From NCBI GenBank assembly GCA_041565075.1, contig JBFGOQ010000004.1, forward strand, positions 9,018-73,017: a DNA stretch of 64,000 nucleotides, read 5' to 3'. Numbering within the stretch: position 1 is the first letter of the stretch; each line of letters opens with the position of its first letter. The position numbers and the translations under genes are program-made. The stretch comes from Gammaproteobacteria bacterium (GTDB lineage Bacteria > Pseudomonadota > Gammaproteobacteria > Steroidobacterales > JABDLF01). Below, piece after piece: positions 677-19,404 of the stretch. The notes beneath the pieces were generated by a model, which worked only from the letters and a program-made list of their open reading frames with translations, searched no databases and was not told the DNA's origin.

Positions 677-743
677 CAGCTGGTTCCTTGCACCCGGATT
701 CCGGCCCGGGCAGGCGCATGGCCCCCGAGTAGGGCCGGATTCT

Positions 744-764
744 AAATGAGAATGTATCTCATTT
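744..764. promoter_or_regulatory. Fur-box-like inverted repeat
   Basis: AAATGAGA-ATGTA-TCTCATTT: perfect 8-bp inverted repeat resembling the Fur consensus, about 70 bp upstream of an iron-binding protein gene. Confidence 0.75.
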
Positions 765-826
765 GCGTTGTGGGGGGAAGTGCCGGGCTAGCGAGATTTA
801 ACATAGCGCGGTAAGGTTAAGCTGCT

Positions 827-1024
827 ATGGCCGAAGTACTTATCGAAGAAAAAGATTTCATGTGTCCCTGTTGCGGCACCATCATATCGATGCTGCTGGA
901 ACTGGGCCACGGCGGCCAGCGTTATATCGAGGATTGCGAAATCTGCTGCAATCCCATCACCATCAGTTACCAGGTCGATGACATCGGCCTCTCCGATTTC
1001 AACGCTAAACCTGCACAGCGCTAG
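827..1024 (+). CDS. CPXCG-motif cysteine-rich small protein
   Basis: 65 aa, CPCCG...YIEDCEICCNPI pattern; its TAG overlaps the GTG of the next gene. Confidence 0.8.
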   Translation: MAEVLIEEKDFMCPCCGTIISMLLELGHGGQRYIEDCEICCNPITISYQVDDIGLSDFNAKPAQR

Positions 1025-1461
1025 TGGGCCAGGATCCGGCCTTGACCGTCAGCAAGACCCTCAGTCTTGCCCCTGAAGAAATACGCATCACTTATATTCA
1101 TGCTTCCGGTCCCGGGGGGCAGAACGTCAACAAGGTTGCAAGCGCAGCCCAATTGCGATTCTCGGTCGACGACTCGCCGTCGCTGCCCGATGAGCTCAAA
1201 GACCGGCTCAGAAAAATTGCCGGACGTCGTATCAACCGCAATGGCGAGCTGATCATCACTGCCCGCCGCTTCCGCAGCCAGGCGCGTAATCGCGATGATG
1301 CCCTGCGGCGACTCGTGACGCTGGTCAGGCGCGCGGCGCGGCCACCAAAGACACGAGTCGCGACGCGGCCCAGCAAGGCCTCCAAACAGCGGCGCCTGGA
1401 TGCCAAAACCCGGCGCGGCCGACTGAAATCATCACGCCGCAAGCCGGACAGCTTCGACTAG
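1024..1461 (+). CDS. arfB: Alternative ribosome-rescue peptidyl-tRNA hydrolase ArfB (YaeJ)
   Basis: ASGPGGQNVNKV (GGQ motif), RSQARN, and basic tail TRPSKASKQRRLDAK. Confidence 0.92.
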   Translation: MGQDPALTVSKTLSLAPEEIRITYIHASGPGGQNVNKVASAAQLRFSVDDSPSLPDELKDRLRKIAGRRINRNGELIITARRFRSQARNRDDALRRLVTLVRRAARPPKTRVATRPSKASKQRRLDAKTRRGRLKSSRRKPDSFD

Positions 1462-1482
1462 CGAAAAAGGCAGCGCCGGGGC

Positions 1483-2577
1483 TCAGCTCTTGGGCGGGGT
1501 ACGCACCTGGTCGCGGCCATCACTCTTGGCCTGGTATAGCGCCGCATCAGCTTCCTGCAACAGTGCCTCCCCGATCAACTCGGGTTCCGTCTGGTTGCGC
1601 CGTGGCATATCTTCGGCGACGCCGACCGACAGCGTCACGGTCACTGCATTGGTCGGATCCAGGCTAATCGGGGTCCCGGACACGGCGTTGCGGATGCGCT
1701 CCGCCATCTGCACACCCGAGGCCTCATCGGTATGCGGTAACAACACCGCCAGTTCGTCACCGCCAAACCGCGCAGCAACATCGCTGCCGCGAATTTGCCC
1801 CTTTACCCGATACGCTACTTCGCGCAGTACGGTGTCGCCGGCAAGATGCCCATAGCTATCGTTGATGGCCTTGAAGTTATCGATGTCGATGAGCAGGCAA
1901 ACCAGGGACTGGTGATAGCGGCGGGCGAGAATGACTTCTTCGCGCAGGCGACTCTGCAGATAGCGACGGTTGTACCAGCCCGTCAGCACATCCGTCAGAC
2001 CGGCACGAACCAGTTTCTCACGATTGACAGCGTTCTCGAGGCAAAAGGCGGCAATAGCCGCCAGGTGATTCAGAAAATCCGTGGCATGGTGACGGGTAAA
2101 TCTCTGTGGGTCGCTGCTACCGAAATTAATGCTGCCGACCAGCCGCTGCTGGCGCATCAGCGGCAAGATCGCAACGCTTTCCAGGCGAGAGCGTGCCGGA
2201 AGGATCAGTTGATGATCGGCCGTGGAATAAGGACCGAGCCAGGTCTTGCGCAGCGTTGAGAACAGCGGCGTCAAACCGAGCAGGCTGTCTACAAACAGCA
2301 CCGAGCGGATATCGTCGGGCTGCGTGCCGCTGCCTGCAAGCAAGTGGCGGATCTCGTGTTGCGGATCGCACAAGACCAGAGTCACATCGTTCAGCCCGAA
2401 GGAATCGCCCAGCCCACGGGTCATGCTTTCCAGCAAGCCGGCGAGAGTCTCGGCGTTGAGCAGATCGAGCTCACGCATCTGCGAACGGCGCAGGATTGCC
2501 TCGTTGTTGCTGGCCTCTTTGGTCAGTGCCGACATCTGCTCGCGCAGCCGGCGGTTTTCTTCGGCCAGGTCGGTCAT
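1483..2577 (-). CDS. Diguanylate cyclase with N-terminal DUF484/GAF-like domain
   Basis: TDVLTGWYNRR, LIDIDNFKAINDSYGHLAGD, I-site RGSD, active site GGDEL, ADAALYQAK. N-terminal coiled coil plus GAF-like segment. Confidence 0.85.
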   Translation of the reverse strand: MTDLAEENRRLREQMSALTKEASNNEAILRRSQMRELDLLNAETLAGLLESMTRGLGDSFGLNDVTLVLCDPQHEIRHLLAGSGTQPDDIRSVLFVDSLLGLTPLFSTLRKTWLGPYSTADHQLILPARSRLESVAILPLMRQQRLVGSINFGSSDPQRFTRHHATDFLNHLAAIAAFCLENAVNREKLVRAGLTDVLTGWYNRRYLQSRLREEVILARRYHQSLVCLLIDIDNFKAINDSYGHLAGDTVLREVAYRVKGQIRGSDVAARFGGDELAVLLPHTDEASGVQMAERIRNAVSGTPISLDPTNAVTVTLSVGVAEDMPRRNQTEPELIGEALLQEADAALYQAKSDGRDQVRTPPKS

Positions 2578-2770
2578 CGCCCTCACAACCGGATGAGTAA
2601 GCCGTCGCAGGCGTGTATTCCGACTCGGGGGCGACGGCTGGCCCGCGCCCGCGGATTCAAGCCTGCCCGCAGCGGCAAGCCTGCCTCAGCGTTTCATCAC
2701 CCGTCAAGAAAATCGGGCCGCCGCGCAGGGCGGCACGGCAGCCCGGTGCCGGTTGGGATGTAGACCGGCA

Positions 2771-2803
2771 TAAAACCCTCGCGCAGGGGCGCCTGCCCCT
2801 CGC
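2771..2803 (-). terminator. Probable intrinsic terminator of the His/Tyr/Arg-rich gene
   Basis: Minus strand reads GCGAGGGGC-AGGC-GCCCCTGCGC then GAGGGTTTTA, directly after the stop codon. Confidence 0.45.
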
Positions 2804-3255
2804 TAGTCGTCGTAATAGACTTCGTCGGAGCTGTGGTCGTCGCTGCTGCCGTCGTCATCCAGGATCTCGTAAACGAGGCCGCCCAGCACCAGACCGGCCA
2901 CCACGGCCCCGAGGTTCACATCACGACGGCCATGATAATGACCATAGCCATAGCGCGCATGGCGATAAGCACGGTAATGTTTTGGATAACGGTAGTAACG
3001 ATAATGGCGACGCGGATGGGCTCTCGCGAAATGCCGCGGGCGTGCACGATAGTGGCCGCGGCTGTAATGCCGTGCGGGCTTGAAGTAGCGACGGTGGCCC
3101 TGGCGCTTGTAAGCAGCGTGGCCGCCATGGCCCGCCACCTGATAGGCACCGTGCTTTGACACACCGCGCGGTGACTCGGCCATGGCGCTGCCCACGCTGG
3201 CCAGGGCAAGTAAAAAACCCGCCGCAACGGTCAATAACTTATGCTGGTTTCGCAT
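2803..3255 (-). CDS. Secreted His/Tyr/Arg-rich low-complexity hypothetical protein
   Basis: SD GCAGGAG before ATG 3255; signal peptide ending AMA; HYR-rich tract; hydrophobic Gly-rich segment; acidic tail. Confidence 0.7.
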   Translation of the reverse strand: MRNQHKLLTVAAGFLLALASVGSAMAESPRGVSKHGAYQVAGHGGHAAYKRQGHRRYFKPARHYSRGHYRARPRHFARAHPRRHYRYYRYPKHYRAYRHARYGYGHYHGRRDVNLGAVVAGLVLGGLVYEILDDDGSSDDHSSDEVYYDD

Positions 3256-3299
3256 TGTCAGATCTCCTGCATTGTGAGACACACGCTAACCTGACCAGA

Positions 3300-3326
3300 C
3301 TGAACAGAGGCTGAATGAGCCATTAA
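3300..3326. promoter_or_regulatory. Direct repeats at 11-bp period; possible OmpR/PhoB-family binding site
   Basis: CTGAA (3300), CTGAA (3311), ATTAA (3322) in the divergent intergenic region. Confidence 0.4.
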
Positions 3327-3400
3327 GGAACGCAACATGGGCATAACAGCAGGCGATCGGGGCGCCGGTGGCGGCTTGAACCCTGTGCGCCAGGAGCAAC

Positions 3401-5467
3401 ATGGATCGCCAGCGCCAGACTAGATGCCGGTCATGCCTGCTTGGTGTGGCCGCCCTGGTGTATGCCGGCACGGCTGGCGCCCTGGAGCTGGGAGATTTCT
3501 TCGCGGATACGCTGGCGGGTGACGGCTGGCGGGCAGCCGGCATCACCATGCAGGTGTCGCTGGGCAACGATGGCGTGTTTGCAGCCGAAATCCGGGCCAG
3601 CTCCATAAGCCTCCAGGCACCATCCATTGAGCTCAGGGATGTCAGGGCCTCATGCCCGCGGCTGCTCGCCAGCGCCACCGCCCTGAGCTGCCCAAGCGCG
3701 CGGGTAAATCTGCGCGGGCTGCCGCTTGACTCGCCGCGTTTCGAAGCCAGTTGGTCCTACAACCTCGTTTCCGGCGATATGCAGTTTGCAGCCAACCGGG
3801 TGGCCCTCGCCAAGGGCATGTTGCGGGTCACCGGCAGCGTGCGCGCCGGCGGGTGGCAGGCACGGATCGGTGCGCGCGGCCTCAGTATTCCCGAGCTGGC
3901 CAGGGCCGCCGCGCCGTTTGTCGAGTTGCCGGTTCCGGCTGGCTTCGAAGGCAAGCTGGATGCGGATTTTGCGCTGGCCGGGCCCGACAGCCTGGCCAGC
4001 GCCGCCGGCCAAGCCCATGTGTATGCGCTCACCGGCGGCAATGAAGAAGGTACGCTGGCGAGCGATCAGTTGCAGGCGAAGCTGACAATCAAAGCCGCGC
4101 GAAACGCCTCAAAATGGCAGATTGACGCCGCGTTGGAAGACACCGCCGGGCAGGTCTACTTTCACCCGGTATTTGTTGATTTCTCCGCGCACGCACTGGC
4201 CGGCGAAATATCCCTGCTTGCCACCCCCGATGGTGACTGGCCGCTTACCTTTCGTCTGCAGCAATCCGGAATTGGCAGCGCAGCAGGTACGGCCATGCTT
4301 GCCGGCCAAAACTTGCGGCCGCTGGAGCTAGAGTTGCAAATCAATGAAGGACTGCTCCCCGGTGCTTACGAGGTTTACCTGCAGCCTTTCCTGGTTGGTA
4401 CGACAGCAGACAGCCTGGAAACAGTTGGCCGCCTCGAGGCGCGCATCAGGTATCGGGACGGTGCACTCAGGCAATTCCAGGCCAGCCTGCAGGATATTCA
4501 CATGGACGATACGCGCGGGCGCTTCGCGATGTACGGACTGGAGGGCAACATAGACTGGGGCTATGACAGTGCGGGTGACTCGCAGCTGAGCTGGCAGGGC
4601 GGTTACATTTACAACGTCGGGCTGGGTCTTGCCCGGCTCGCATTGAAAACCGGCGGTGGTGAAATCGCGCTGGCGGAAAAGGCGCGTATACCGGTGCTGG
4701 ACGGTATGTTGACGGTGTCGGAATTCAGACTCACTCATCTGAATGCTGCGATCAATCAACTTGAATTCGATGCGGATATCGACAGTATCGGTTTGCGCGC
4801 ACTCACCCGGGCGCTGGGCTGGTCACCGTTTGCCGGCAGCCTCTCGGGTTCCATTCCGCGCATGCGCTTCGCCGACGATGTCATTACAGTGGACGGCGCA
4901 CTGACCGCGCAAGTATTCGATGGCACCGTCACGATAGAAAACCTGCAGGTGCTCGATCCACTTGGCGTGCTGCCCCAGGCGCAGGCTGATGTGCGGTTGC
5001 GCAACCTTGATCTGGCTGCTGTTACCAGCACCTTCAGCTTTGGCAACATGGAAGGCAGGCTGGACGGCGACTTCAAGAAATTGAGGATGCTGGGGTTTTC
5101 TCCGGTTGAATTTGACGCCAGGCTTTACACGACGCCCGGCGATCGATCGCGGCACCGCATCAGTCAGAAAGCGATCGAGAATATTTCCGACCTCGGCGGC
5201 GCAGGTGCCGCCGCTGTGCTGTCGCGCGGCATGCTGCGTTTTTTCGACGCATTCTCCTACGACCAGATCGGCTGGAGCTGCCGGCTGCGAGACGAAGTGT
5301 GCCGCATGGACGGCGTGGCAGCGGCGCCGGGCAACGGCTATTACATCGTCAAGGGCAAAGGACTGCCGCGGATAAATGTCATCGGCTTTTCCCGGCGCGT
5401 GAGCTGGCCATTACTGGTAGAAAAGCTGCGAAATATCAACGCCGAGGGTGTCTCGCGCAGCCCGTGA
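3401..5467 (+). CDS. YdbH-like (AsmA-like superfamily) envelope protein
   Basis: 688 aa, hydrophobic N-terminus, repetitive beta-strand pattern, C-terminal GSLSGSIP...FFDAFSYDQIG...GKGLPRINVIG; directly upstream of a YdbL-family gene. Confidence 0.62.
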   Translation: MDRQRQTRCRSCLLGVAALVYAGTAGALELGDFFADTLAGDGWRAAGITMQVSLGNDGVFAAEIRASSISLQAPSIELRDVRASCPRLLASATALSCPSARVNLRGLPLDSPRFEASWSYNLVSGDMQFAANRVALAKGMLRVTGSVRAGGWQARIGARGLSIPELARAAAPFVELPVPAGFEGKLDADFALAGPDSLASAAGQAHVYALTGGNEEGTLASDQLQAKLTIKAARNASKWQIDAALEDTAGQVYFHPVFVDFSAHALAGEISLLATPDGDWPLTFRLQQSGIGSAAGTAMLAGQNLRPLELELQINEGLLPGAYEVYLQPFLVGTTADSLETVGRLEARIRYRDGALRQFQASLQDIHMDDTRGRFAMYGLEGNIDWGYDSAGDSQLSWQGGYIYNVGLGLARLALKTGGGEIALAEKARIPVLDGMLTVSEFRLTHLNAAINQLEFDADIDSIGLRALTRALGWSPFAGSLSGSIPRMRFADDVITVDGALTAQVFDGTVTIENLQVLDPLGVLPQAQADVRLRNLDLAAVTSTFSFGNMEGRLDGDFKKLRMLGFSPVEFDARLYTTPGDRSRHRISQKAIENISDLGGAGAAAVLSRGMLRFFDAFSYDQIGWSCRLRDEVCRMDGVAAAPGNGYYIVKGKGLPRINVIGFSRRVSWPLLVEKLRNINAEGVSRSP

Positions 5468-5550
5468 TGCCAGCTGGGCTCAAAATACGTTGTGAACCCG
5501 GGGCAAGACTGGCAGTCTCACTCACAAGTCGCCACATGGAGGCCACAATT

Positions 5551-6159
5551 ATGAAAGTCAGCGGATATGCAGCAGTGGCAGGCGGGTTCCTCCTCGCCGC
5601 CTGCGTCACGATCAACGTCTATTTCCCAGCCGCAGCCGCCGAGCAGGCCGCGGACAAAATCATCACTGACGTGCTGGGAGCTGAGCCCCAGGCCAAGCGC
5701 TCACAGAGTGGCGACACGGCCGCACTACGCCAGTCTGTCACGGGCTTTGCCTACGCGGCAGGCAAAGGTTTGCTCGACCTTTTGGTACCGCCGGCACATG
5801 CACAGCAAGCCGACATTGACATTTCCTCACCGGGCGTACGTCGTATCCAGGCTTCCATGAAAGCGCGCAATGCCAGTCTGGAACCGTTTTATGACAACGG
5901 CGCTGTGGGTTTCACCTCTGACGCCATGGTGGCCGTGCGCGATCTCAATGCCGTGGCTTTGCGTGATCGCAACACGGTCAGGCAGCTCGTTGCGGATGAA
6001 AACCGCGACCGCGACGCCTTGTACCGGGAAATAGCGGTCGCCAACGGTCATCCCGAATGGGAAGACGAGATCCGCGCGACTTTTGCGCGGCGCTGGGTAG
6101 CCAAGGCAAGAAGCGGCTGGTTCTACCAGGACGACGGCGGCAACTGGCGGCAGAAATAA
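5551..6159 (+). CDS. YdbL (DUF1318) family lipoprotein with YnbE-like N-terminal segment
   Basis: Lipobox LAAC then VTINVYFPAAAAEQAADKII; C-terminal ENRDRDALYREIA...ARSGWFYQ...W typical of DUF1318. Confidence 0.78.
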   Translation: MKVSGYAAVAGGFLLAACVTINVYFPAAAAEQAADKIITDVLGAEPQAKRSQSGDTAALRQSVTGFAYAAGKGLLDLLVPPAHAQQADIDISSPGVRRIQASMKARNASLEPFYDNGAVGFTSDAMVAVRDLNAVALRDRNTVRQLVADENRDRDALYREIAVANGHPEWEDEIRATFARRWVAKARSGWFYQDDGGNWRQK

Positions 6160-6188
6160 AACCCCCGGACGCGCACGCGAAACAAACC

Positions 6189-6458
6189 ATGACTTCCCTG
6201 TATGTCGGTAACCTGCCTTTTTCGGCAACCGAAGAAGACGTAAGGGCGGTATTCGTCGAATTTGGCGAAGTCTCGAGCGTCAAGCTGATCAGCGACAGGG
6301 AGACAGGTCGTCCACGGGGCTTTGGCTTCGTTGAAATCGCGGATGACGCAGCGGATGCCGCCATAGCGGCAGTCAATGGCAGCCCCATGGATGGGCGCCC
6401 CCTGCGCGTGAGCAAAGCGCAAGACACACCGCGACGCTCACCATTCGGTAAGCGCTGA
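6189..6458 (+). CDS. Single-RRM RNA-binding protein
   Basis: RNP2 LYVGNL and RNP1 RGFGFVE motifs; DRETGRP loop. Confidence 0.92.
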   Translation: MTSLYVGNLPFSATEEDVRAVFVEFGEVSSVKLISDRETGRPRGFGFVEIADDAADAAIAAVNGSPMDGRPLRVSKAQDTPRRSPFGKR

Positions 6459-6505
6459 AGACTCGCCATCAGCACCCGGGTGCACACCCGCACCCGCCGC
6501 ACTAT

Positions 6506-6976
6506 TCAGGCGCGCTCGCTGAAGTAGCCGTGGTCGGCGCCGGCCAGCAGTGACCGGAAGTCCTTGCCACGCATGTGCACGAATTCGCGGTGGTCGCCCG
6601 CCTCGAAGTAGACGTCGTTACAACGCGACAGGCTCATATCGACCAGCACATCGAGACCATAAGGCTCGCCGAATGGCGGCACCGCCCCGACTTCACAATC
6701 ATCGAATAACTCACTGAGGTCCTTTTCTGTTGCCAGGCCAAGATGGCGCTGATAGCAACGGTGCAGAAGACCCAGCTGCACTCGATGAGTGGCCGGCACG
6801 GCTGCCAGCAGGAAACCCTTCTCGTCGGCCAGCACAACGCCTTTTACGACCTTGTCACCGCAAAGATGTGCCGCCGCCGCCGCACGCGAACTGCTCGATG
6901 CATAAGAATGCTCAACCAGCTCGTAATCGACACCTTTCCTGTCAAGGAACTCGCGCAACGTAATCGCTATACCCAT
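6506..6976 (-). CDS. YbaK/ProX-family aminoacyl-tRNA deacylase
   Basis: VVKGVVL (conserved Lys), GAVPPFG, FEAGDH motifs. Confidence 0.85.
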   Translation of the reverse strand: MGIAITLREFLDRKGVDYELVEHSYASSSSRAAAAAHLCGDKVVKGVVLADEKGFLLAAVPATHRVQLGLLHRCYQRHLGLATEKDLSELFDDCEVGAVPPFGEPYGLDVLVDMSLSRCNDVYFEAGDHREFVHMRGKDFRSLLAGADHGYFSERA

Positions 6977-7273
6977 GTCACGCACCCCTCGCCCGTCTCC
7001 GGGTCGCTTGCCTCCTTTTATTTATAGCTCAACCCACCGCCTTTTTCCCCGTTGCAGGCCGGCTCATCCCGCCCCAATGGCGCCGATCGAGGTGTGGCGG
7101 CAAGCCTGCGAAATTGCCAGGCACCCGATTCGGGTCCGCCGTGCGCTGCAACGACGGCGCTGATGCGGCCCGATTGCCTGACAGCACGACGGACAATTCT
7201 TGTGAACCCCACGCTTGCCAGCGCCTGCCTGTTAACGCAGACTTGAGTGGGCAATTTTCGGGTCGAAAGGCAG

Positions 7274-8503
7274 ATGCCTGTGGCAAATGATACGAGCAGT
7301 AGGGTCAAGCTGACGCCAAGGCTTTTGGTGATCGACAGCAGTCCCGAAATGGCTCACCAGATCGCCCGCATTGCAAAGCGAATTGGTTACCAAGCCCATC
7401 CCTGTCGGGACTATGACGATTTTCGACGACGCTATGACTCCGATACCTCGGTCGTCGTTATCGACCTGATGCTGCAAAAACCCGATGGCGTGGAAATTAT
7501 CCGGGCCCTGTCCGGGCGCAAGAGTCCGGCCGGCGTGGTGTTGACCAGCCGCTTCGACCCGCGAGTGCTGGGGGCGGCCGAGCGCCTGGCAAAAGCACAG
7601 GGGCTATGGGTCATCGGTACCCTTACCAAACCATTTTCAGATTCCGTTCTTGAGACGATGCTTGCGGATGTTGAGGAAGCGGCCGTCGAGCGCACCATGC
7701 AGTTCAAGGCCTTCCCGACAATTGAAGACCTGCGCGAGGGCATCAAGCGCGATGAGTTGCGCGTGTATTACCAGCCAAAAATTGATCTCAACGCGCTTAC
7801 TGTGCGCTCGGTAGAAGCGCTGGTCCGCTGGCAGCATCCAGGTCTTGGATTATTGAGCCCCGATCGTTTCATCGAAATGTCCGAAGAAGGAGGCATGATC
7901 AACGCCGTAACCTATGCAGTGATGGAGAAGGCCTTTGCGCAATGCGCCGACTGGCTGACAGGTGGCCTCGACCTCAAAGTATCGATCAACGTTTCGACAC
8001 GGTCGCTCACCGATCTGGAGCTGCCTGACAAGATCATTGAGCTATCTCAGCGACACGGCATAAGCAGCGATCAGATTGTTCTGGAAATCACGGAAAGCTG
8101 GCTCAGCAAAGACCAGGTCGCTGCGCTGGATATTCTGACGCGGCTGCGCATCAAGGGATTCGACCTTTCCATCGACGACTATGGCACCGGTTATTCGACC
8201 ATGCAGCAGCTAAAGGAAATTCCTTTCAGCGAATTGAAGCTCGACCGCAGTTTCGTAACGGATGCCGGCACCAACCCCGATGCCCGCGCCATCGTTGAAT
8301 CGTCCATCAAACTGGGGCACGAGCTGAACCTGCGCGTCGTGGCCGAGGGCGTCGCCAGTCAGGCAGACTGGGACCTGGTCTGCCAGCTTAAATGCGACGA
8401 AGGCCAGGGGTTCTTTATCGCGCGGCCAATGCCGGGACGAGACATGCCGAATTGGCTGGATCGATGGCAGGCCACGCTTGGCAAGACGGTGCAATCAAAA
8501 TGA
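7274..8503 (+). CDS. Response regulator with REC and EAL (c-di-GMP phosphodiesterase) domains
   Basis: REC: VIDLMLQKPDG, LTKPF. EAL: YYQPKI, VEALVRWQHP, SINVS, LEITES, DDYGTGYS, LKLDRSF, AEGV, QGFFIARP. Confidence 0.9.
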   Translation: MPVANDTSSRVKLTPRLLVIDSSPEMAHQIARIAKRIGYQAHPCRDYDDFRRRYDSDTSVVVIDLMLQKPDGVEIIRALSGRKSPAGVVLTSRFDPRVLGAAERLAKAQGLWVIGTLTKPFSDSVLETMLADVEEAAVERTMQFKAFPTIEDLREGIKRDELRVYYQPKIDLNALTVRSVEALVRWQHPGLGLLSPDRFIEMSEEGGMINAVTYAVMEKAFAQCADWLTGGLDLKVSINVSTRSLTDLELPDKIIELSQRHGISSDQIVLEITESWLSKDQVAALDILTRLRIKGFDLSIDDYGTGYSTMQQLKEIPFSELKLDRSFVTDAGTNPDARAIVESSIKLGHELNLRVVAEGVASQADWDLVCQLKCDEGQGFFIARPMPGRDMPNWLDRWQATLGKTVQSK

Positions 8504-9414
8504 GGCGGTCAACGGCAAGGCTGCGACTTCTGTGGTGTCGCGCGCGCGGCCCGCGCGCGGCTGTATCCATACCGGTGTTGGCGGTACTGCCCGGGCTGGC
8601 GGCAGCGCAAACAGCGACGAATAATCTACTTGGCATCGCCCTGGGCGCAGGCCTGGTGCTGCTTGCTGGCGTGATTTTTTATCTGGTTTACAGGGTCAGG
8701 GCTCTTGCGCAGGCCTTGCAATCGCAGTCGGACGACATTGCCGGCCTCGCTCAGGAACGCGACACCGCGATCGCCAGACTGGCCCAACAGGCACAGGAAT
8801 TCGAAACGCAACTGGGTGAACAGCTGCAGGAACTGGAGAACGAAAATGAAGAGTTGAGCGAGGCCACCGCAAAGCTGCGCAAGTTGGTGGTGGTCGACGA
8901 ATTGACCGGGCTGTCCAACCGCATGCACTTTGACCAGGTGCTACCGCATGAAATCAAGCGTGCGCTGCGAGAGGAAAAGCCGCTATCCATCATCCTTGGC
9001 CGATTCGACTGGGCCGATGCTTTCCAGCAATCCTACGGGCGCGAGAGATTTGACGAGGCCCTGAACAGGATAGCCGAAGAAGTCAGAACCATTTTTCGGC
9101 GTGCAGGCGATTTGCCGGCGCGCTATAACGATGACTCGTTCGCCGTCATTTTTACTTCTGACGGTGATGTGGCGGTTCGCTTTGCCGAAAGATTGCGCAA
9201 AGCTATCTGGAATATTCCAATTCCAAATGATGCTTCGCAAACCGCCGATCGGGTGACGTTCAGCCTCGGCGTCGCCACTATCCAGGCCAATAAGGTCCAC
9301 GATCCCAAAGATTTCCGCCAGGCGGCGGAAACAGCCACCAGGATTGCCGAGGGTAAAGGCGGCAATCACGTTGAGGAATATCGCAAACCCCCGGCGGAAC
9401 CGTCCGCCGTCTGA
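8500..9414 (+). CDS. Membrane-anchored degenerate GGDEF-domain protein (likely c-di-GMP receptor)
   Basis: ATGA overlap with the EAL gene; TM segment LLGIALGAGLVLLAGVIFYLV; coiled coil; DELTGLSNR; I-site RAGD kept; GGDEF replaced by NDDSF. Confidence 0.8.
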   Translation: MRRSTARLRLLWCRARGPRAAVSIPVLAVLPGLAAAQTATNNLLGIALGAGLVLLAGVIFYLVYRVRALAQALQSQSDDIAGLAQERDTAIARLAQQAQEFETQLGEQLQELENENEELSEATAKLRKLVVVDELTGLSNRMHFDQVLPHEIKRALREEKPLSIILGRFDWADAFQQSYGRERFDEALNRIAEEVRTIFRRAGDLPARYNDDSFAVIFTSDGDVAVRFAERLRKAIWNIPIPNDASQTADRVTFSLGVATIQANKVHDPKDFRQAAETATRIAEGKGGNHVEEYRKPPAEPSAV

Positions 9415-9429
9415 AGCCAGGGACCGCAA

Positions 9430-9843
9430 ATGCCGAAAAACCCCCTCAGACGCTTTCTCGACAGGACGCTGTCGGGCGAAGCCACCAATCTAATCGCGGA
9501 GGGCGTCGTCATCGACGGCTTCATAAAAGGAATCGGACACCTGATCGTAGCAGGTCGGATCAAGGGAGACTGCAAACTGGCAGGCACCGTGAGCCTGTCA
9601 GACAGCGGCAGCTGGAGCGGTAAGATCGCAGCACAGCGAATCCTGATTGCAGGCCAACTCAAAGGCAGTGCCGAGGCAGAAGAAAAACTCGAAATTGCTG
9701 CCACCGCGAGAATCAAGGGTGACGTGTCCGCCAAGATGATCGCCGTCGCGCAAGGCGCTATCGTCGACGGCAAGATGCATGTCTCCGGAGACAATTCACC
9801 GCAAACCTTCACCGAAAAAAGAAGCCGCCAGCAAGACCCGTAA
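9430..9843 (+). CDS. Bactofilin (polymer-forming cytoskeletal protein)
   Basis: LIAEGVVIDGFI...VAGRIKGD...IAGQLKGS...ATARIKGDVSA...GAIVDGKM beta-helix repeats. Confidence 0.88.
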   Translation: MPKNPLRRFLDRTLSGEATNLIAEGVVIDGFIKGIGHLIVAGRIKGDCKLAGTVSLSDSGSWSGKIAAQRILIAGQLKGSAEAEEKLEIAATARIKGDVSAKMIAVAQGAIVDGKMHVSGDNSPQTFTEKRSRQQDP

Positions 9844-9856
9844 GTTGCCGACGGTT

Positions 9857-10591
9857 TTATTGAGGCGCTTCGCGAAATTCCTCGCACCACATGCGCGTAG
9901 CACCGAGCACGCCAGCAGGCATCGCCAGCAGGTTCACGACTGGCAGGCTGGCCAGAAGCATGACGCCGGCGCCGAGGCCCAGGGTCATGCCCCGCCGGGC
10001 GGCGAGCGCGGCACGCTGATCGCTTGTTGTCAGCGCATGGTTTTCCATTGGATAGTCCATGTATTCCAGCGCCAGCAGCCACGCGCCCAGGCCAAGCCAG
10101 ATCAAAGGCGCCAGGAGATTGAGTCCCGGCACCAGGAACAGGAGAGCCGCGGGCACAAGCCAGCGCAGCAGATACCAGAGCTTTGCTAATTCGTGCACAA
10201 AGGCCGTCGTCACCTCCTGCCAGAAGCCACGATTGCCAGCGGCGGGCAGTTGCCCGGTGAGCAAGCGCTCGTAACGCGCGGCCAATGCGCTGTTAAAGGG
10301 TGCGCCAAGCAGATTTGCCAGTACTGTAAATGTATACACGGCGACCAGCAGCGCCACCACGGCAAACACCGGCCACAACACCCACTGCAGCCAGTCCAGC
10401 CAGGCGGGCAGCCAGGCGAGCAGCCAGTCGATGAGAATGCCGAAACCCATGACGCCCGCGGAAATTATCGAAGCAAAGACCAGGACACTGATGAGTACTG
10501 GCAGCAATACGAAGCGGCGCAGACCGGGTGTCGGCAGGGCGGACAAGCCTGACCACGCATAGGAAAAACCCCTGGCAAATTCACTCATCAT
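9857..10591 (-). CDS. cysZ: CysZ / EI24-domain membrane protein
   Basis: PGLRRFVLLP, ANLLGAPFN, LEYMDYP, PVVNLLAMPAGVLGAT. Confidence 0.85.
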   Translation of the reverse strand: MMSEFARGFSYAWSGLSALPTPGLRRFVLLPVLISVLVFASIISAGVMGFGILIDWLLAWLPAWLDWLQWVLWPVFAVVALLVAVYTFTVLANLLGAPFNSALAARYERLLTGQLPAAGNRGFWQEVTTAFVHELAKLWYLLRWLVPAALLFLVPGLNLLAPLIWLGLGAWLLALEYMDYPMENHALTTSDQRAALAARRGMTLGLGAGVMLLASLPVVNLLAMPAGVLGATRMWCEEFREAPQ

Positions 10592-10614
10592 AAATAACGA
10601 ACAGACCTCAACGG

Positions 10615-11859
10615 TTAAAGCAGGTGCCGCAGTTGCGGCAGGTATTTTTCGAAAGAGCCTGTATTGATGACAACGACCTGTTCTCGCTCACGCAAGAATC
10701 CGCGTTCGGCCAGTGGAGCCAGGGCAGCCAGTGCGGCCGCACCCTCGGGACCTATCCACCAACCTGTCTCGCGCCAGCTCCGCGACAGTTCAGCGGCAAT
10801 TTCATCCTCACTGACCGCCAGCGCACAACCGCTACTGGCGCGCAGAATTTGCAAGACGCGAGCGTGGCCGACACCACCGGGCACATTCAAACCGGTCGCC
10901 AGCGTGGCACCCGCAGCAACGGTGTCTGTATCGTCCGACCGCGACGCAAACGCCTGCACAAGCGGCGAGGTCGCCGCACTTTGCACCGCAACGATCCGCG
11001 GACGACGGGCGGAGACCAGCCCCAGCGCTTCGAGCTCGGCAAAGGCCTTCCACATGCCGAGGATTCCCGTGCCACCCCCCGCGGGATACACGATCACATC
11101 GGGCAGATGCCACCTGCCCCCCGGAGCAGGTTGCGCGATCTCGAGGCCCAGGGTTTTTTTGCCCTCGACGCGCCAGCCTGGCTCCTGGAACGTCGCCACA
11201 TTGAAATAGCCGCGTGGCAAATATCGCGAGCGCATTATTTCGCCGGCCTCGCGAATCGTGCCCGCGCAAGTTTCGAGGGTTATCGATGCGTGCTTTCGCG
11301 CCAGGGCGGCCACCCTGCCCAGAATGGGCATCGGGGTGTCCTCCGGCATGATGATTGCGGCCTCAAGGCCGCCCGCCAGGGCATATTCCGCCAGTGAATC
11401 GCCGGCGTTTCCCTGGGTGGGTACAACGACCTTGCTGATCCCGAGTTTGCGTGCCATTGATACCGTCATGGCCATGCCGCGGTCTTTAAAACTCTGGGTC
11501 GGGTTGGCACCGAAACCCGGTGCCGCCCGTCCCTCGTCTTTGAGTTTGAGGTCAAGGTCAAGGGCGCGTGCGACAGGGTGTCCCGGATAAGCATGCAGGG
11601 GCGTGGACCCCTCACCGAGAGTCACGATATGCCGGGCGTCATCCGCATCATTGATGTCCAGGGCCAGCAGCGCGGTGAACTTCCACATGTCCTGGCGCTG
11701 CGCCTGGAACCAGGCATGCTGCGGGTACGCACGCTGTATTGCCGGTAAGTCCAGTTCGATAATTAACGGTCGCTGGTCCTGGGGGCACAGGTTGGCATGT
11801 TGGTTCAATGCGATGCGATGACCGCATGCAGTACATACAAGTGCGCGCGCGAAACCCAT
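10615..11859 (-). CDS. Threonine synthase-like fold-type II PLP enzyme
   Basis: TLGEGSTPL, NPTQSFKDRG (PLP Lys), GNAG, EGKKT, PAGGGTG, PEGAA, NTG; N-terminal CTAC...CP. Start reassigned to ATG 11859. Confidence 0.82.
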   Translation of the reverse strand: MGFARALVCTACGHRIALNQHANLCPQDQRPLIIELDLPAIQRAYPQHAWFQAQRQDMWKFTALLALDINDADDARHIVTLGEGSTPLHAYPGHPVARALDLDLKLKDEGRAAPGFGANPTQSFKDRGMAMTVSMARKLGISKVVVPTQGNAGDSLAEYALAGGLEAAIIMPEDTPMPILGRVAALARKHASITLETCAGTIREAGEIMRSRYLPRGYFNVATFQEPGWRVEGKKTLGLEIAQPAPGGRWHLPDVIVYPAGGGTGILGMWKAFAELEALGLVSARRPRIVAVQSAATSPLVQAFASRSDDTDTVAAGATLATGLNVPGGVGHARVLQILRASSGCALAVSEDEIAAELSRSWRETGWWIGPEGAAALAALAPLAERGFLREREQVVVINTGSFEKYLPQLRHLL

Positions 11860-11873
11860 GGGCAAAGATGCAG

Positions 11874-12569
11874 TCAGCGCCGGCGCCGTGAGGCGCGTGA
11901 TGCGAGACCTGCCCGAAACGGAAAAATCAACACAAGGCCGGCCACAAAGCCACCCGCGTGGGCGGCAAAGGCAACGCCCGGCGTACCGGGGGGCGCCGAC
12001 ATAGAACTCAGAATCTGGACAGCAAACCAAAGGCCCAGCACGGCCATGGCCGGAAACCGTGCGATGTGCAGATAGAAAATCAGTGGAATCGCCACCAGCA
12101 CATGCGCTCTCGGATAAAGGATGAGGTAGGCGCCAAGCACGCCGGAAATGGCACCGCTGGCCCCGATCATCGGGATCGCGGATTGTGGCTCCATCATGGA
12201 TTGGGCAAATGCCGCGGCGACACCGCAGGCCAGATAAAAAACGACGAATCGCGGCGCTCCTAACTCGTCTTCGACATTATCCGCGAATATCCACAAGTAC
12301 AGCAGGTTGCCGAGCAGGTGCATGATGCCGCCATGCAGAAACATCGATGTGAAAATGGTAGCGGCTGGCGGGACCAGTTCTATGGACGACGGCAGCCGGG
12401 CGTGATCGAACAGGACCGCCGGCGTCACGCCGAGTGCATAAATGAACGTCTGCCCGGCCTGCGGCCCCAGCGAGAGCTGGTAGAGAAACACCAGCCCGCA
12501 GGCTCCGATAAGCGCATAAGTTACATACGGCGTCGCATAGACAGGGTTGTCGTCTCGCAGGGGAATCAC
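11874..12569 (-). CDS. Rhomboid-family intramembrane serine protease
   Basis: SMFLHGGIMHLLGN, GASG (catalytic Ser), AHAGG (catalytic His). Confidence 0.93.
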   Translation of the reverse strand: MIPLRDDNPVYATPYVTYALIGACGLVFLYQLSLGPQAGQTFIYALGVTPAVLFDHARLPSSIELVPPAATIFTSMFLHGGIMHLLGNLLYLWIFADNVEDELGAPRFVVFYLACGVAAAFAQSMMEPQSAIPMIGASGAISGVLGAYLILYPRAHVLVAIPLIFYLHIARFPAMAVLGLWFAVQILSSMSAPPGTPGVAFAAHAGGFVAGLVLIFPFRAGLASRASRRRR

Positions 12570-12585
12570 GGTCGCGGCTTCGGCT

Positions 12586-13812
12586 TCAGTCGCCCGCGGC
12601 GGGCGCCAGCTGCAAAAGCAGGCTCCCTGTTACGGGCTCATTCAAACTGGCAGATTGCAGCTCGTAGGAAATCGGGATGGCCTTGTCAGCCGCCGCTTGC
12701 GTGACCACCACACGCAAGGGCTCGCGGAAAACCGGCATCGAACGATGCTTGCGAATCTCGCCCAGAGGGTAGGCGACTTCGAGAACGCTGTCGCTACGGG
12801 TGACCGCCGGGTAGCCGGGGTTATCTATCTCGGTCAGCACCCGTTTTCGTGATTGCGGATCGATCTCGGCGGCAAGTATTTTCGGCGCCACCTCAAAACC
12901 GTGCTCTCGCGGCAAGCGCAACACCAGATGCGCGTTTTTTAATGCTCGGTCGCCGGCATTGCTCACTTCAAAATTGAGCCGGTGCGCGGCTTTTTCAAAC
13001 ATATGAAATTTGTCCTCGACCTCGAATGTCTGGTGCACTTTCCGCAAATCATCCTTTAGTTCATCAATGCTCTTTTTCGCGAATGGCTCGTCCTGTCCAA
13101 AGGCACGTACATGCATCAGGCGCACCATGCCAGTGTCCAGCCCACTCATCGCCTCTACTTCACTGCGCGCCGCGATGGCCGCCTTGAGTTTTCTCGCCGC
13201 GATGGCCGATGGCAGATCACTGTCATCATTTATTCCTAAACTGAGTGTGCGCGACCCGCCCGCAAAATTAAGCGCGATTGCATGCCCGCTGGCAATCGGT
13301 GTTGCGTCCGCATTGGGGGCTTCGCTTGATTGGGCATCGTCGCTCTCGGCAGCCCGTTCGCGCAGCACCTGGCATTCGTTCCTGGTGAGCATGGAATTTT
13401 CCTTGCCCCGGCGAATAAACCCGACGCCCTTCATCAAGGCACCGCAGGATTTTTTCAAGAGGTAAGGCGGCGTATGTGCCTGGTCGACAACAATTACGGA
13501 AACGGCCCGGGGGCCCGAACCCGGGGTAAACACCTGGATCGACAGCGATGGCTCGATGAATTCATCGGCCAGCGCCTGCAGAGCCCGGCTGTCGTGGGCT
13601 TCCTCGCGCGGAATCCCCGGCGTTTTGCGCTGCGCCGGCTCGCCTGGCAGCACACCTATGACCAGTGCCCTCTGACCAACTATGTCGGCATTGGCAAGCG
13701 CCATGATATCGGCCAGCAAATCATCCGGATACTCCAGGTCGTAGGTGTGCGATCTAAACATCAGCGCCGGTCCTTCCCGCCCGCGCTTCACGATGTCTTT
13801 CAGATTGTGCAT
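12586..13812 (-). CDS. Schlafen/AlbA_2-like domain protein (degenerate motif) with beta-rich C-terminal domain
   Basis: GREGPALMFR...LLADIMALAN...LVIGV...GI...IEP...PY...FIRRG...TR follows the AlbA_2 pattern; C-terminal LNFEVSNAG...LVLRLP. Confidence 0.62.
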   Translation of the reverse strand: MHNLKDIVKRGREGPALMFRSHTYDLEYPDDLLADIMALANADIVGQRALVIGVLPGEPAQRKTPGIPREEAHDSRALQALADEFIEPSLSIQVFTPGSGPRAVSVIVVDQAHTPPYLLKKSCGALMKGVGFIRRGKENSMLTRNECQVLRERAAESDDAQSSEAPNADATPIASGHAIALNFAGGSRTLSLGINDDSDLPSAIAARKLKAAIAARSEVEAMSGLDTGMVRLMHVRAFGQDEPFAKKSIDELKDDLRKVHQTFEVEDKFHMFEKAAHRLNFEVSNAGDRALKNAHLVLRLPREHGFEVAPKILAAEIDPQSRKRVLTEIDNPGYPAVTRSDSVLEVAYPLGEIRKHRSMPVFREPLRVVVTQAAADKAIPISYELQSASLNEPVTGSLLLQLAPAAGD

Positions 13813-13844
13813 GCCTATGTGCTCCGCAGACGTGCAGCTGCGAT

Positions 13845-14543
13845 TTACCAGGGAATCCGGCTACCGTCGTAACTGAAGAAGCCGCCGCTGTCATCAAGGG
13901 TAAGTCCGTCGATCACCTCGCGCATACCGGCAACGCTTTTGGTCGCATCAATCAGGGCGTTCGGTCCGCCCATGTCTGTCGCCACCCAGCCAGGGTGCAG
14001 GATGGCCACGCAGACTCCGGCGTCGTGCAATTCAATAGCCGCCGATTTGAGCGCGGCGTTGAGGGCGGCCTTTGAGGATCGATAAATATAGGATCCGCCC
14101 GAGCTGTTGTCGGCGATGGATCCCATGCGGCTGCTGATGCCGATCGCCCTGGCTTTGCTGCCGGCCCTGAGATTCTCCTGCAGCGCGCCCGTTACCTGTA
14201 ACGGTGCGATACAGTTGATTCGCAAAACATCCAGCCAGTCTTGCGCATCCAGCTGTCCCAGATTCCTGCCCTGCGGACCATAAACACCGGCATTGTTGAG
14301 CAGCAAGTCAATGGGCCTGCCTTTCAGCTGCTCACCAAGCGCAGCAATTGCCGGTTCATCCGCGACGTCCAGTGCCAGTATCTCCAGCCGATTGCCGGCG
14401 CCGTCTGCGAGCTTGTTGAGGGCCTCTGCGCCGCCCGGCTTGCGGCAAGTGGCAACGATATCCCAACCGTCTGCCAGATATTGACGTACAAACTCCAGAC
14501 CGATGCCCCGGTTGGCACCGGTGATAAACAAAGTCTTTTTCAT
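13845..14543 (-). CDS. Short-chain dehydrogenase/reductase (C-factor/CsgA-like)
   Basis: TGANRGIG, NNAG, SSRMGSI, YRSSKAALN, HPGWVATDMGG. Confidence 0.9.
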   Translation of the reverse strand: MKKTLFITGANRGIGLEFVRQYLADGWDIVATCRKPGGAEALNKLADGAGNRLEILALDVADEPAIAALGEQLKGRPIDLLLNNAGVYGPQGRNLGQLDAQDWLDVLRINCIAPLQVTGALQENLRAGSKARAIGISSRMGSIADNSSGGSYIYRSSKAALNAALKSAAIELHDAGVCVAILHPGWVATDMGGPNALIDATKSVAGMREVIDGLTLDDSGGFFSYDGSRIPW

Positions 14544-14589
14544 AACTTAAGTCTTGTAACCGGCGCCCGGCTGCTTTCAGCAGGACAAT

Positions 14590-14838
14590 TCATGCTTCGT
14601 TGCGCCCATCCCAGATGCTCTTTGGACCACGCCGGTCAGCACCCGAGCGGCGCGGTGCCCGGTCCGGCTCGAAGCGCAATAATTCGCGCCTGTCCAGCGC
14701 GCCGGTTCGTCGCTCACCTTTGCGGCGCTCCGGACCCGAGTAGCCCGGCACATTAATGGTCTTGACGCCAATTTCGAGTTCAGCCGGACCCTCAGTGGCT
14801 TGCTCGGCTTCGCCTGGCTGCTCGTCTTCAGGGTTCAT
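14590..14838 (-). CDS. Small hypothetical protein with YxGPxRR motif and [DE]RR repeats
   Basis: 82 aa; SD GGGAGA before ATG; acidic N-half; GYSGPERRKGERR...DRR...PRR...DRR. Confidence 0.65.
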   Translation of the reverse strand: MNPEDEQPGEAEQATEGPAELEIGVKTINVPGYSGPERRKGERRTGALDRRELLRFEPDRAPRRSGADRRGPKSIWDGRNEA

Positions 14839-15002
14839 AGGTCGTTCTCCCGCGATCTGGCCCCAAGGATAGAATATCCCCGGTCACCGGGTCTAACTTT
14901 TGCGTCACAATTCGTGCCAGGCGGGCTCGGCAGCGGCCAGTGAATCCTTTGAACAATGGCGATCTGCGGGGCTCCGGCGCCGGTCGTGCAGACTGTCCGG
15001 CT

Positions 15003-15030
15003 CTTGATTTTTTCCCAGCTGCACCCATAG
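15003..15030 (+). promoter_or_regulatory. Sigma32 (RpoH)-type promoter of htpX
   Basis: CTTGAT-N14-ACCCATAG resembles the consensus CTTGAA-N13/14-CCCCATNT, upstream of a known heat-shock gene. Confidence 0.65.
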
Positions 15031-15068
15031 TTGTGGAACTGCGTGGCCGATTAGGGGACCAAAGCAAC

Positions 15069-15950
15069 ATGAAACGCATATTTCTTTTTCTGATGACCAA
15101 CATCGCCGTGCTGGTGGTGCTCAGCGTGGTATTGCGCCTGCTGGGCGTCGACCGCATTCTCGATGAAAGCGGCACCGGGCTTAATTATCAGAATCTCCTG
15201 ATCCTGTCTGCAGTCATCGGTTTCGGCGGCTCCTTCATATCACTGGCAATTTCCAAGTGGATGGCGAAACGCAGCACCGGTGCGCATGTCATAACTCAGC
15301 CGGCTAACGAAACAGAAGCTTGGCTGGTAAATACCGTGCAACGTCTGGCACGCAGCTCGGGCATCGAAATGCCGGAAGTTGCGATATACGACGCACCTGA
15401 AATGAACGCATTTGCGACCGGCGCACGCCGCAACGCGGCCCTTGTTGCCGTCAGCACCGGCCTGCTGCGCAGCATGGACCGCCAGGAAGTAGAGGCGGTA
15501 CTCGGGCACGAGATCGCGCACGTTGCCAACGGCGACATGGTCACGCTCGCACTCGTACAGGGGGTGGTCAATACTTTCGTAATATTCCTTTCCCGCATTG
15601 TTGGCCATGTCGTTGACCGGGTTGTGCTGAAAAATGAACGGGGCCACGGCATCGGCTATTTTCTGAGCGTGTTGCTTGCGCAGGTAGTGCTGGGTTTCCT
15701 CGCATCGATAATCGTGATGTGGGTATCGCGCCACCGTGAATTCAGGGCCGATGCTGGCTCGGCCGAACTGGTCGGGGCCAACGGCATGATTCGCGCGCTG
15801 CAAAAACTACAGCAAAACCGCCCCGCTACCTTGCCCGAACAACTGCAGGCCTTCGGGATTTCCGGCAATCGCACGCAAGGCTGGCGCCGGCTGTTCATGA
15901 CGCATCCGCCGATCGAAGAGCGCATAGCCGCATTGCGCGGCCAAGGTTGA
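15069..15950 (+). CDS. htpX: Zinc metalloprotease HtpX
   Basis: [41 protein letters not shown]. Confidence 0.95.
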
Positions 15951-16029
15951 TCAGAGTTCCTCTGACCAGGTTCGCTGCCCCGTCGGCCGCCGCGTCCGGG
16001 TCGGTCCCGGTGCGACATTGCCTGGCCGA

Positions 16030-17019
16030 TCATCTGGCCGCCGGACCACGATCTCTTGTTACCTTGTTGCGTCCTGATTTCTTGGCGCGATAAAGCGCCT
16101 GATCGGCGGCCTGCACAACGCTCTCCCAATCCTCGGGTTCGTGACGGAACCCACCCTGTGCCACACCGCCGCTGACCGTCACCACGCCGCGGCGTGCTTT
16201 CGCGTGCGGGATGGCCGCCTGTTCGAGCGCGGCGCGCAAGCGCTCCGCCACCACCATGGCGCCATCCAGGTCGGTCTCGGGCATCAGCAGCAGGATTTCT
16301 TCGCCACCATAGCGATACAGCCGGTCGGCGCTGCGCAAAGAGCCAGCGAATTCGGCCACGACTTGCTTGAGTACGCGGTCGCCGGCGGGATGGCCGTAAT
16401 TGTCGTTATAGGCCTTGAACCTGTCGACGTCGAACAGGGCCACGGAGTAATCATGCTGGTAGCGGCGCGAGGTCTCTTCGATATGCGCAAGGTCCCGTTC
16501 CAGCGCGCGCCTGTTACCGATCCGGAGCAGCGGATCTTCCAGCGACAGGGTTCTCAGCCGCGCAGTCACGGTGGCCAGGTCTTCGCCTCGTCGCCGGCGC
16601 TCGACGTTCTCCCGCTGCGATTCGTAAATGCTGAAATGGGCGCGCGCCATATCGGTCACGGTGACCATCCCGACGACCTGTGCATCTGCTCCCAGCACCG
16701 GCAGGTGCCGCACGCGATGCTCGCGCGCCACCAGCAAGGCCTCCGAAAGCGACTGTTCGGGCCGCACGCAGCTGAGTGTGGTACTCATATGCTCTGCTGC
16801 CGGTGCTGACCAGTCCAGCTTGCCGTCTAACACGGTAGTTGCCAGCCGGATAATGTCAGCCTCTGTGATAATGCCCGCAGGCCTGCCATCGCTGCCGAGC
16901 AAGATCACGCTGGAAACGGATTCCGCCGACATTTTGCGCACAACCTGTTCCAGCGTCCCGGTCTGCGGCAGCACCGGCACTTCTCTGCTCATCAGGTTTT
17001 CGACCAGGATTTCCTGCAC
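16030..17019 (-). CDS. CBS-domain diguanylate cyclase
   Basis: CBS pair (GIITEADII; RHLPVL...GMVTVTD), then DVDRFKAYNDNYGHPAGD, I-site RSAD, GGEEI. GTG start after a G-rich SD. Confidence 0.87.
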   Translation of the reverse strand: MQEILVENLMSREVPVLPQTGTLEQVVRKMSAESVSSVILLGSDGRPAGIITEADIIRLATTVLDGKLDWSAPAAEHMSTTLSCVRPEQSLSEALLVAREHRVRHLPVLGADAQVVGMVTVTDMARAHFSIYESQRENVERRRRGEDLATVTARLRTLSLEDPLLRIGNRRALERDLAHIEETSRRYQHDYSVALFDVDRFKAYNDNYGHPAGDRVLKQVVAEFAGSLRSADRLYRYGGEEILLLMPETDLDGAMVVAERLRAALEQAAIPHAKARRGVVTVSGGVAQGGFRHEPEDWESVVQAADQALYRAKKSGRNKVTRDRGPAAR

Positions 17020-17057
17020 GCCCCCCCCTGGCTTGCAACTTGCAATGCTGCGCGGTC

Positions 17058-17474: not shown

Positions 17475-17500
17475 CACTGCCTGGTGGCTCGCGGAGTGGC

Positions 17501-17827: not shown

Positions 17828-17848
17828 AAGTTGCTCATCCGCCGACCA

Positions 17849-19282: not shown

Positions 19283-19404
19283 TGCTCATGCCTCCTGTGC
19301 TGGCGTTCGCCGTCAACCGGGAAAATCAAGCATATCAGCATGCCTGTGCTTTCCGACGGCCGCCGCGCATGCAATTTCAGCCAAGGGTCGCGATAATCCG
19401 ACTG

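Follow-up and report, generated by a model that had tools for sequence, protein, structure and literature searches.

A candidate cyclic di-GMP response operon in a gammaproteobacterium and a bactofilin subfamily with Cle-like tail motifs

The stretch of DNA analysed here (the window) comprises 64,000 nucleotides of contig JBFGOQ010000004.1 from a Gammaproteobacteria bacterium (assembly GCA_041565075.1), and at 7274-9843 its plus strand carries three genes encoding a receiver-EAL (REC-EAL) protein, a pseudo-diguanylate cyclase and a bactofilin. These may well constitute a cyclic di-GMP (c-di-GMP) response operon, made up of a phosphodiesterase, a dead-cyclase membrane receptor and a bactofilin predicted to bind c-di-GMP itself, a proposal for and against which the arguments seem evenly balanced. 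A broader and slightly less secure proposal is that the whole bactofilin subfamily to which the third gene belongs, found mostly in uncultured gammaproteobacteria, acts directly as an effector of c-di-GMP, in which a split, circularly permuted site of the Cle type, formed by the two tails of the beta-helix, clamps a c-di-GMP dimer and thereby switches the assembly or bundling of filaments, and that in the present lineage the phosphodiesterase and the pseudo-cyclase make of this a local membrane-anchored switch. The strongest link between the bactofilin and c-di-GMP is its own conserved tail motifs together with its co-loss with GGDEF genes. Taken singly, the parts are of known kinds, and what is new is a bactofilin subfamily with tail motifs and without the usual membrane-targeting start.

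The bactofilin (gene 3, 137 residues, 9430-9843, plus strand) scores 73.9 bits on the Pfam family PF04519 against a cut-off of 27.9, with the match covering residues 21-116. Its core (residues 19-118, 9484-9783) is modelled by AlphaFold as a right-handed beta-helix, at a block pLDDT (predicted local distance difference test) of 96-99 from residue 21 on, and the top Foldseek matches are the Thermus bactofilin 6RIA/6RIB and BacA 2N3D. The protein starts MPKNPLRR, with no membrane-targeting sequence of the MFSKKKK type, the published consensus (PMC12448750). A pattern for such starts matches 0/4 rows from the genus, 8/106 subfamily rows and 12/21 control bactofilins, the controls being 20 sequences from other genomes, mostly carriers, and the second copy of this genome, which is an ordinary bactofilin starting MFGGKK. 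In the order, which includes Woeseiaceae and Steroidobacteraceae, the subfamily is present in 144 of 301 genomes (E<=1e-20), about half, and in a class-level sample (300 rows, tallied, like the GGDEF base rate given below, with one unpublished genome, G338, on which no claim depends) 20 genomes carry it out of the 298 scored outside G000 and G013 (E<=3e-30). None of the 300 genomes of a phylum-wide sample has it, which may explain why the subfamily has gone unstudied; a search of the ESM Atlas returned generic bactofilin clusters only. A tree of the core alone (99 columns and weak support, with 18 of the 21 controls separated) places 104 subfamily rows and 3 long-branch controls apart from 18 ordinary rows, with a Shimodaira-Hasegawa-like approximate likelihood ratio support of 86. 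Two sequences cut by contig ends (L117 and L327) were left out of this tree and of the 205-row pool used below, and kept in the count over 86, 20 and 21 rows.

The tails of the subfamily carry [RK]RxxD before the beta-helix and [FY]x[DE][RK]R after it, which in gene 3 read RRFLD (R7, R8 and D11; 9448-9462) and FTEKR (F127, E129, K130 and R131; 9808-9822). The first matches the (R/K)RxxD half of the motif reported for Cle proteins and CSP, and the second compares with the Cle element [Y/F]xGP[D/E][R/K]R less its GP. Both motifs occur in 69/86 rows of the order, in 17/20 rows from 16 other gammaproteobacterial families and in 0/21 other bactofilins, as well as in 79/81 further loci (partly from the same genomes) and in 173/205 pooled rows, figures to be read with the row-collecting searches in mind, whose profiles included the tails and so favour motif-bearing rows. 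Within the pool R7, R8, D11 and R131 are conserved at 94-96% and rank with the structural glycines. Spacing is held too, the end of the N-terminal motif falling 8 residues ahead of the first rung (a linker of 8 in 167/187) and the C-terminal one beginning 12 residues past the last glycine (12 in 146/186). Outside the order the C-terminal motif is often literally FxDRR, and among 2185 crude open reading frames of this genome the pair is found in one, gene 3. Both motifs are absent together from 12/205 rows, with about 2.5 expected were they independent, a difference that kinship inflates; joint absence is seen in families f13 and f24, in loci L095, L154, L321 and L326, and in genomes G097 and G255. 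Judging from the sequence, the bactofilin falls outside the Cle motif family yet may work like a Cle motif, and by its geometry the two tails, in which 8 and about 8 residues are free, could come together on one face of the roughly 3 nm helix or across protofilaments.

Co-loss with GGDEF genes gives the second line of evidence. No GGDEF match is found in 61 of the 301 genomes of the order, and at E<=1e-16 the subfamily is present in 0/61 of these GGDEF-less genomes as against 159/240 GGDEF-positive ones, three weaker hits on the GGDEF-less side being other bactofilin types. Family f9 repeats the division, with the subfamily in 28/29 GGDEF-positive and 0/15 GGDEF-less genomes, the latter including genomes of 2.9-4.3 Mb, and an ordinary bactofilin is kept in 9/10 of the GGDEF-less genomes tested. 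The converse does not hold, as 81 GGDEF-positive genomes of the order are without the subfamily. Beyond the order, each of the 20 carriers has at least 12 GGDEF matches, a weak point alone given that 250 of 300 genomes have some match. In genus g43 of f9 (loci L362, L363, L366 and L356) a graded loss can be seen, in which G097 and G255 keep at least 10 GGDEF matches and a subfamily gene without the tail motifs, and G190 (2 matches) and G087 (none) show an ordinary bactofilin only.

Gene neighbourhoods point in the same direction inside the order and lend themselves to another explanation as well. A same-strand GGDEF or EAL domain lies within 2.6 kb of the bactofilin in 49/84 loci of the order and in 9/20 families, and the same is true of 2.7% of random 380-base spots in this genome. 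Two layouts account for these, a REC-EAL gene upstream (f1, f6, f7, f8, f13 and f24), or a HAMP-PAS-GGDEF-EAL gene downstream in the Woeseiaceae-rich loci (L161-L238), where the active site reads AGDEF and RxxD is missing in 63/63; in these loci a DUF2845 gene is often just upstream of the bactofilin. The chief rival holds that the tail motifs serve self-assembly, the binding of anionic lipids or a protein client such as HtpG, and that the triplet is a lineage-specific outcome of shuffling within an ancestral block of gshA, a thrC-like gene, DUF2845, an RRM gene, cysZ and several signalling genes, so that only the phosphodiesterase and the pseudo-cyclase cooperate. A small common set of genes does reappear, differently ordered, around each of the three members, genome G022 has the pseudo-cyclase directly upstream of the REC-EAL orthologue with no bactofilin, and the RRxxD and ExR residues could pair mutually, residues 6-15 being predicted as helical by AlphaFold. 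Outside the order the bactofilin directly follows htpG in 9/20 loci (L308, L310, L311, L313, L318, L319, L322, L324 and L327), often with an hslR-like S4 gene and a NUDIX gene then following, and this adjacency to htpG (Hsp90) suggests heat-shock co-regulation. Left unexplained on such an account are the empty 0/61 column in the face of ordinary bactofilins retained in 9/10, and the separate placements beside c-di-GMP genes at L309 (an EAL-HDOD gene between htpG and the bactofilin), L314 and L324 (a DUF3391-HD_5 gene, of the HD-domain type, two genes upstream). Overall this rival seems rather unlikely.

The proposal of a c-di-GMP-binding bactofilin has nevertheless a good deal to contend with. 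The strongest contrary fact is that in f8, f13 and f24 the two motifs are never intact together (0/12), eroded although these families are GGDEF-rich and have REC-EAL beside the bactofilin. The 61 GGDEF-less genomes come from few lineages (42 from two families) and many are small, motifs rich in Arg and Asp are generic, and both tails are modelled at low confidence (block pLDDT 57-68) with no sign of meeting. Outside the order an adjacent GGDEF or EAL gene is found at just two of the 20 loci, L309 and L314, against 0/20 controls, and the frequent position after htpG counts on the same side. Within the order a convergent hydrolase gene intervenes between the bactofilin and the GGDEF-EAL gene at the two f9 loci that were read, so that part of the 49/84 is inherited synteny. 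As a general rule, then, that bactofilins sit beside c-di-GMP enzymes was rejected, failing outside the order and being partly inherited synteny inside it. Two side observations concern these same neighbourhoods. In f8 (L091 and L092) the bactofilin has tandem REC-EAL duplicates directly upstream, and the receiver of one copy is degenerate; at L083 (6446-7732, minus strand), with orthologues in f2, f3, f11, f12 and f18, a recurring protein of 410-510 residues convergent to the bactofilin combines an N-terminal receiver with a hydrophobic segment and a C-terminal part that Pfam does not match.

The pseudo-diguanylate cyclase (gene 2, 304 residues, 8500-9414, plus strand) reads as a signal-peptide-like segment (1-36), a transmembrane segment (about 43-64), a coiled-coil stalk (about 66-128), a WspR-like GGDEF domain (131-289 by Pfam) and a Pro-rich tail kept in 16 close homologues. 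An earlier note, made from the letters of the window, had given it a membrane anchor, a coiled coil and a GGDEF fold; these stand, with the refinement that another hydrophobic stretch, signal-peptide-like and ending AAA-Q37, comes before the transmembrane segment. Pattern and hydropathy thus suggest a cleaved signal peptide, few periplasmic residues, one transmembrane segment, and a coiled coil and GGDEF domain in the cytoplasm. Degenerate GGDEF domains that retain an I-site act as c-di-GMP receptors in PelD and PopA. Gene 2 was said by the same note to be of this sort, and the sequence side of that reading is borne out: RFDWAD occupies the metal-motif position and NDDSF the GGDEF position (9127-9141, variable across the clade), the metal, guanine-contact and GG[DE]EF residues of an active cyclase are lost, and the RAGD I-site (9100-9111; R201 and D204) is kept along with R157 (8968-8970), the secondary I-site arginine. 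Counting along the WspR alignment makes these the equivalents of WspR R242, D245 and R198, and in WspR the I-site consists of R242xxD245 plus an R198 contributed by a second GGDEF domain (PMC2270323). All three are invariant in 38/38 rows, as the note's suggested check on homologues would have it, and the active site is scrambled, the first metal Asp being R, E, G or S in 36/38 and the GGDEF positions varying freely. Gene 2 is accordingly a putative membrane receptor, predicted to bind c-di-GMP through the kept I-site.

In trees from which six duplicate or truncated rows were dropped, the 40 degenerate rows form one clade (support 99/94, the bootstrap not fully settled), whose nearest sampled sister is a protein of G007 with an intact GGEEF and the same architecture (97/63), and a single 17-row subclade (100/92) comprises the bactofilin-adjacent pseudo-cyclases. 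From the invariant I-site, the scrambled active site and this clade structure it follows that gene 2, as far as its sequence tells, is a member of an old family of pseudo-cyclases in which selection has acted to keep the binding site, and that the triplet is one lineage which arose once. Three other views of gene 2 and its neighbours were rejected: an active cyclase by the lost active-site residues, a decaying pseudogene by 60-75% identity among the 16 homologues and the invariant I-site, and a triplet conserved across the whole order by the single origin in the tree. The earlier idea of the three genes as a fixed unit, whose role in shape or polarity is conjecture, gives way for the same reason, since among the eight families of the order with mapped clade members five place the pseudo-cyclase beside gshA and away from the bactofilin (f8, f13, f19, f24 and one f20 genome). 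One f10 genome also has a degenerate clade member, and a metagenome scan with the pseudo-cyclase alignment gave one locus from 201 candidate stretches. At the gshA loci L035-L045 (f5, f8, f13, f19, f20 and f24) genes of the pseudo-cyclase family are oriented divergently to gshA; in f8, f13 and f24 gshA is followed by a single receiver gene and then a large GGDEF-EAL gene, and in G007 the GGEEF-intact version occupies the gshA-adjacent position.

That the pseudo-cyclase serves as membrane anchor of the bactofilin is plausible but doubtful. Pressed further, the idea makes it the sole receptor, which when bound to c-di-GMP recruits the bactofilin to the membrane in place of a targeting sequence, the tail motifs being docking sites. 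The translational coupling and 15-base spacing of the genes, the conserved Pro-rich tail and the missing targeting sequence would suit this, the more so as in Caulobacter a membrane client can replace that sequence (PMC12448750). The motif-bearing bactofilin is, however, far more widespread than the pseudo-cyclase, the motifs are kept in f2, f9, f11, f16 and f17, in whose searched genomes a pseudo-cyclase query found no clade member, and f8, f13 and f24 have the pseudo-cyclase yet eroded motifs, all of which makes a sole-receptor role improbable.

The REC-EAL protein (gene 1, 409 residues, 7274-8503, plus strand; Response_reg 18-130 and EAL 151-385) carries the EAL, DDYGTGYS and EGV motifs that had been read in it. 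Its EAL domain (7724-8428) has E181, N239, E271, D301-D302, K322, E358 and Q378, which we take to be the catalytic positions, and in gene 1 and 19 homologues the full set (the E of EAL, N, E, the loop-6 DD, K, E and Q) is present. With all these positions kept, and RocR among the solved relatives, an active c-di-GMP phosphodiesterase is likely. The gating of this enzyme by phosphorylation, part of the original suggestion, is harder to sustain. In CheY the second Asp of the acidic pair binds Mg2+. The receiver of gene 1 retains D64, T91 and K119, its acidic pair reads D21-S22 in place of DD (D-S in 4/4 members of the genus), and in the f14 and f23 homologues even the acceptor Asp is gone. Of the gene families that recur around the mapped loci none was recognised as a kinase, a genome-wide kinase search not being made. 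Because of the Ser and the want of a recognised neighbouring kinase, gating is doubtful. The slimmest of the alternatives, in which the bactofilin is a scaffold that localises the EAL phosphodiesterase as a local c-di-GMP sink and the EAL domain is the real partner, draws on the EAL domain common to both neighbourhood layouts and fits alongside a c-di-GMP-binding bactofilin instead of excluding it, but has no same-strand EAL within 5 kb to work with in f2, f4, f10, f14, f16, f18 and f19 or in 19/20 loci outside the order.

Put together, the c-di-GMP response operon would work as follows. The REC-EAL protein, with its complete catalytic set, would remove c-di-GMP. The pseudo-cyclase, having lost the metal, guanine and GGDEF residues and kept R157, R201 and D204, would act as receptor, a coiled-coil dimer held by one transmembrane segment and perhaps cross-linked, in the manner of WspR, by intercalated c-di-GMP dimers. 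The bactofilin, without a canonical membrane-targeting start and with a motif on each side of its beta-helix, could close its two tails on an intercalated c-di-GMP dimer, either in cis or between neighbouring protofilaments. In this way c-di-GMP may switch how filaments assemble, bundle or bind clients, and the phosphodiesterase encoded alongside would reset the system.

The layout of the locus is as the earlier note described it, with three co-oriented genes, an ATGA overlap of genes 1 and 2 at 8500-8503 and 15 bases (9415-9429) between genes 2 and 3, flanked by a divergent YbaK-type gene on one side and a convergent cysZ on the other. Its proposed neighbourhood check comes out positive, the order being kept in 3/3 genomes from the same genus, in G008 (a member of another family, at 42-50% identity, whose flanks differ) and in metagenome contig L158, and given this conservation and the 2.7% random background the triplet is not a chance arrangement. 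An Rfam scan of window positions 1-20000 at gathering level gave zero matches, hence no c-di-GMP riboswitch there, and a scan of 6900-10000 for sigma-70 promoters and terminators gave nothing exceeding shuffled sequence; with neither in hand co-transcription is inferred from gene spacing only. The YbaK-type gene (6506-6985, minus strand) is present in the G003 locus and not in those of G001 or G002. Further afield, a DUF484/GAF-GGDEF gene with a GGDEL active site (1483-2586, minus strand) may belong to the same ancestral block, since in f7, f8 and f13 its orthologues and the REC-EAL-bactofilin pair are divergently oriented. A CBS-GGDEF gene (16030-17148, minus strand) has a GGEEI active-site variant and a long branch in the tree, and a 408-residue protein (12586-13812, minus strand) shows an N-terminal Schlafen/AlbA_2 match below threshold and nothing else. 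Elsewhere in the genome PilZ and MshEN domains are both found, the MshEN domain in a protein, and FliG was not found at 95% completeness.

In titles and the beginnings of abstracts, subscription papers being largely uncovered, we found no publication linking bactofilin and c-di-GMP in this way, nor this gene combination, the pseudo-cyclase clade or the motif-bearing subfamily. The text of PMC12448750 is without mention of c-di-GMP, and its motif logos (Figure 7) may already show the N-tail motif. Regulation of bactofilin assembly and localisation is largely open, and a small soluble member with a predicted second-messenger site and four near-invariant residues makes the question testable. If the proposal is true, there would be a bactofilin under ligand control and a novel design of c-di-GMP site, tying c-di-GMP directly to a cytoskeletal polymer and extending the known binding modes by a split, permuted Cle motif, and a function could be given to a subfamily carried by roughly one in two of the order's sampled genomes.

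Among known systems, BacA of Caulobacter and TtBac of Thermus share with gene 3 the PF04519 family and the right-handed beta-helix, and differ from it in that gene 3 has no MFSKKKK-type start and a conserved C-tail; most bactofilin C-tails are poorly conserved and known bactofilins assemble without dependence on nucleotides, according to PMC12448750. Gene 1 has the architecture and length of RocR and PvrR and matches RocR 3SY8 at E 2e-48, scores 251 bits on the PvrR model, under its 580-bit cut-off, and is set apart by its DS acidic pair and by the lack of a recognised cognate kinase in the mapped neighbourhoods. For gene 2 the best solved relative is WspR (E 7e-36), with equivalents of R198, R242 and D245 all present, from which it differs in being catalytically dead and in having a signal peptide and one transmembrane segment in place of the receiver; set beside PelD, PopA and WspR it has no GAF or REC domain and forms a separate clade. 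In the Cle proteins of Caulobacter and CSP an intercalated c-di-GMP dimer is bound through DRR-x11-(R/K)RxxD, unfolded until bound (PMC7382256), and the Cle family consensus is a tandem [Y/F]xGP[D/E][R/K]R (PMC5677366). The Cle proteins (CleA-E, ARR) and CSP have in common with the bactofilin the half-sites [D/E][R/K]R after an aromatic residue and (R/K)RxxD, and tails that are predicted to be disordered without ligand. Against the likeness, the bactofilin halves stand in the opposite order, are separated by about 115 residues including a 100-residue beta-helix instead of by 11, and are without the GP and YxG elements, and in CSP the Tyr and Gly that precede the second half do matter (Y163A 4.4 uM and G165A 7.7 uM versus 0.18 uM; PMC7382256). 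The Cle carrier is a CheY domain; here the carrier is a polymer, and the site one predicted from sequence.

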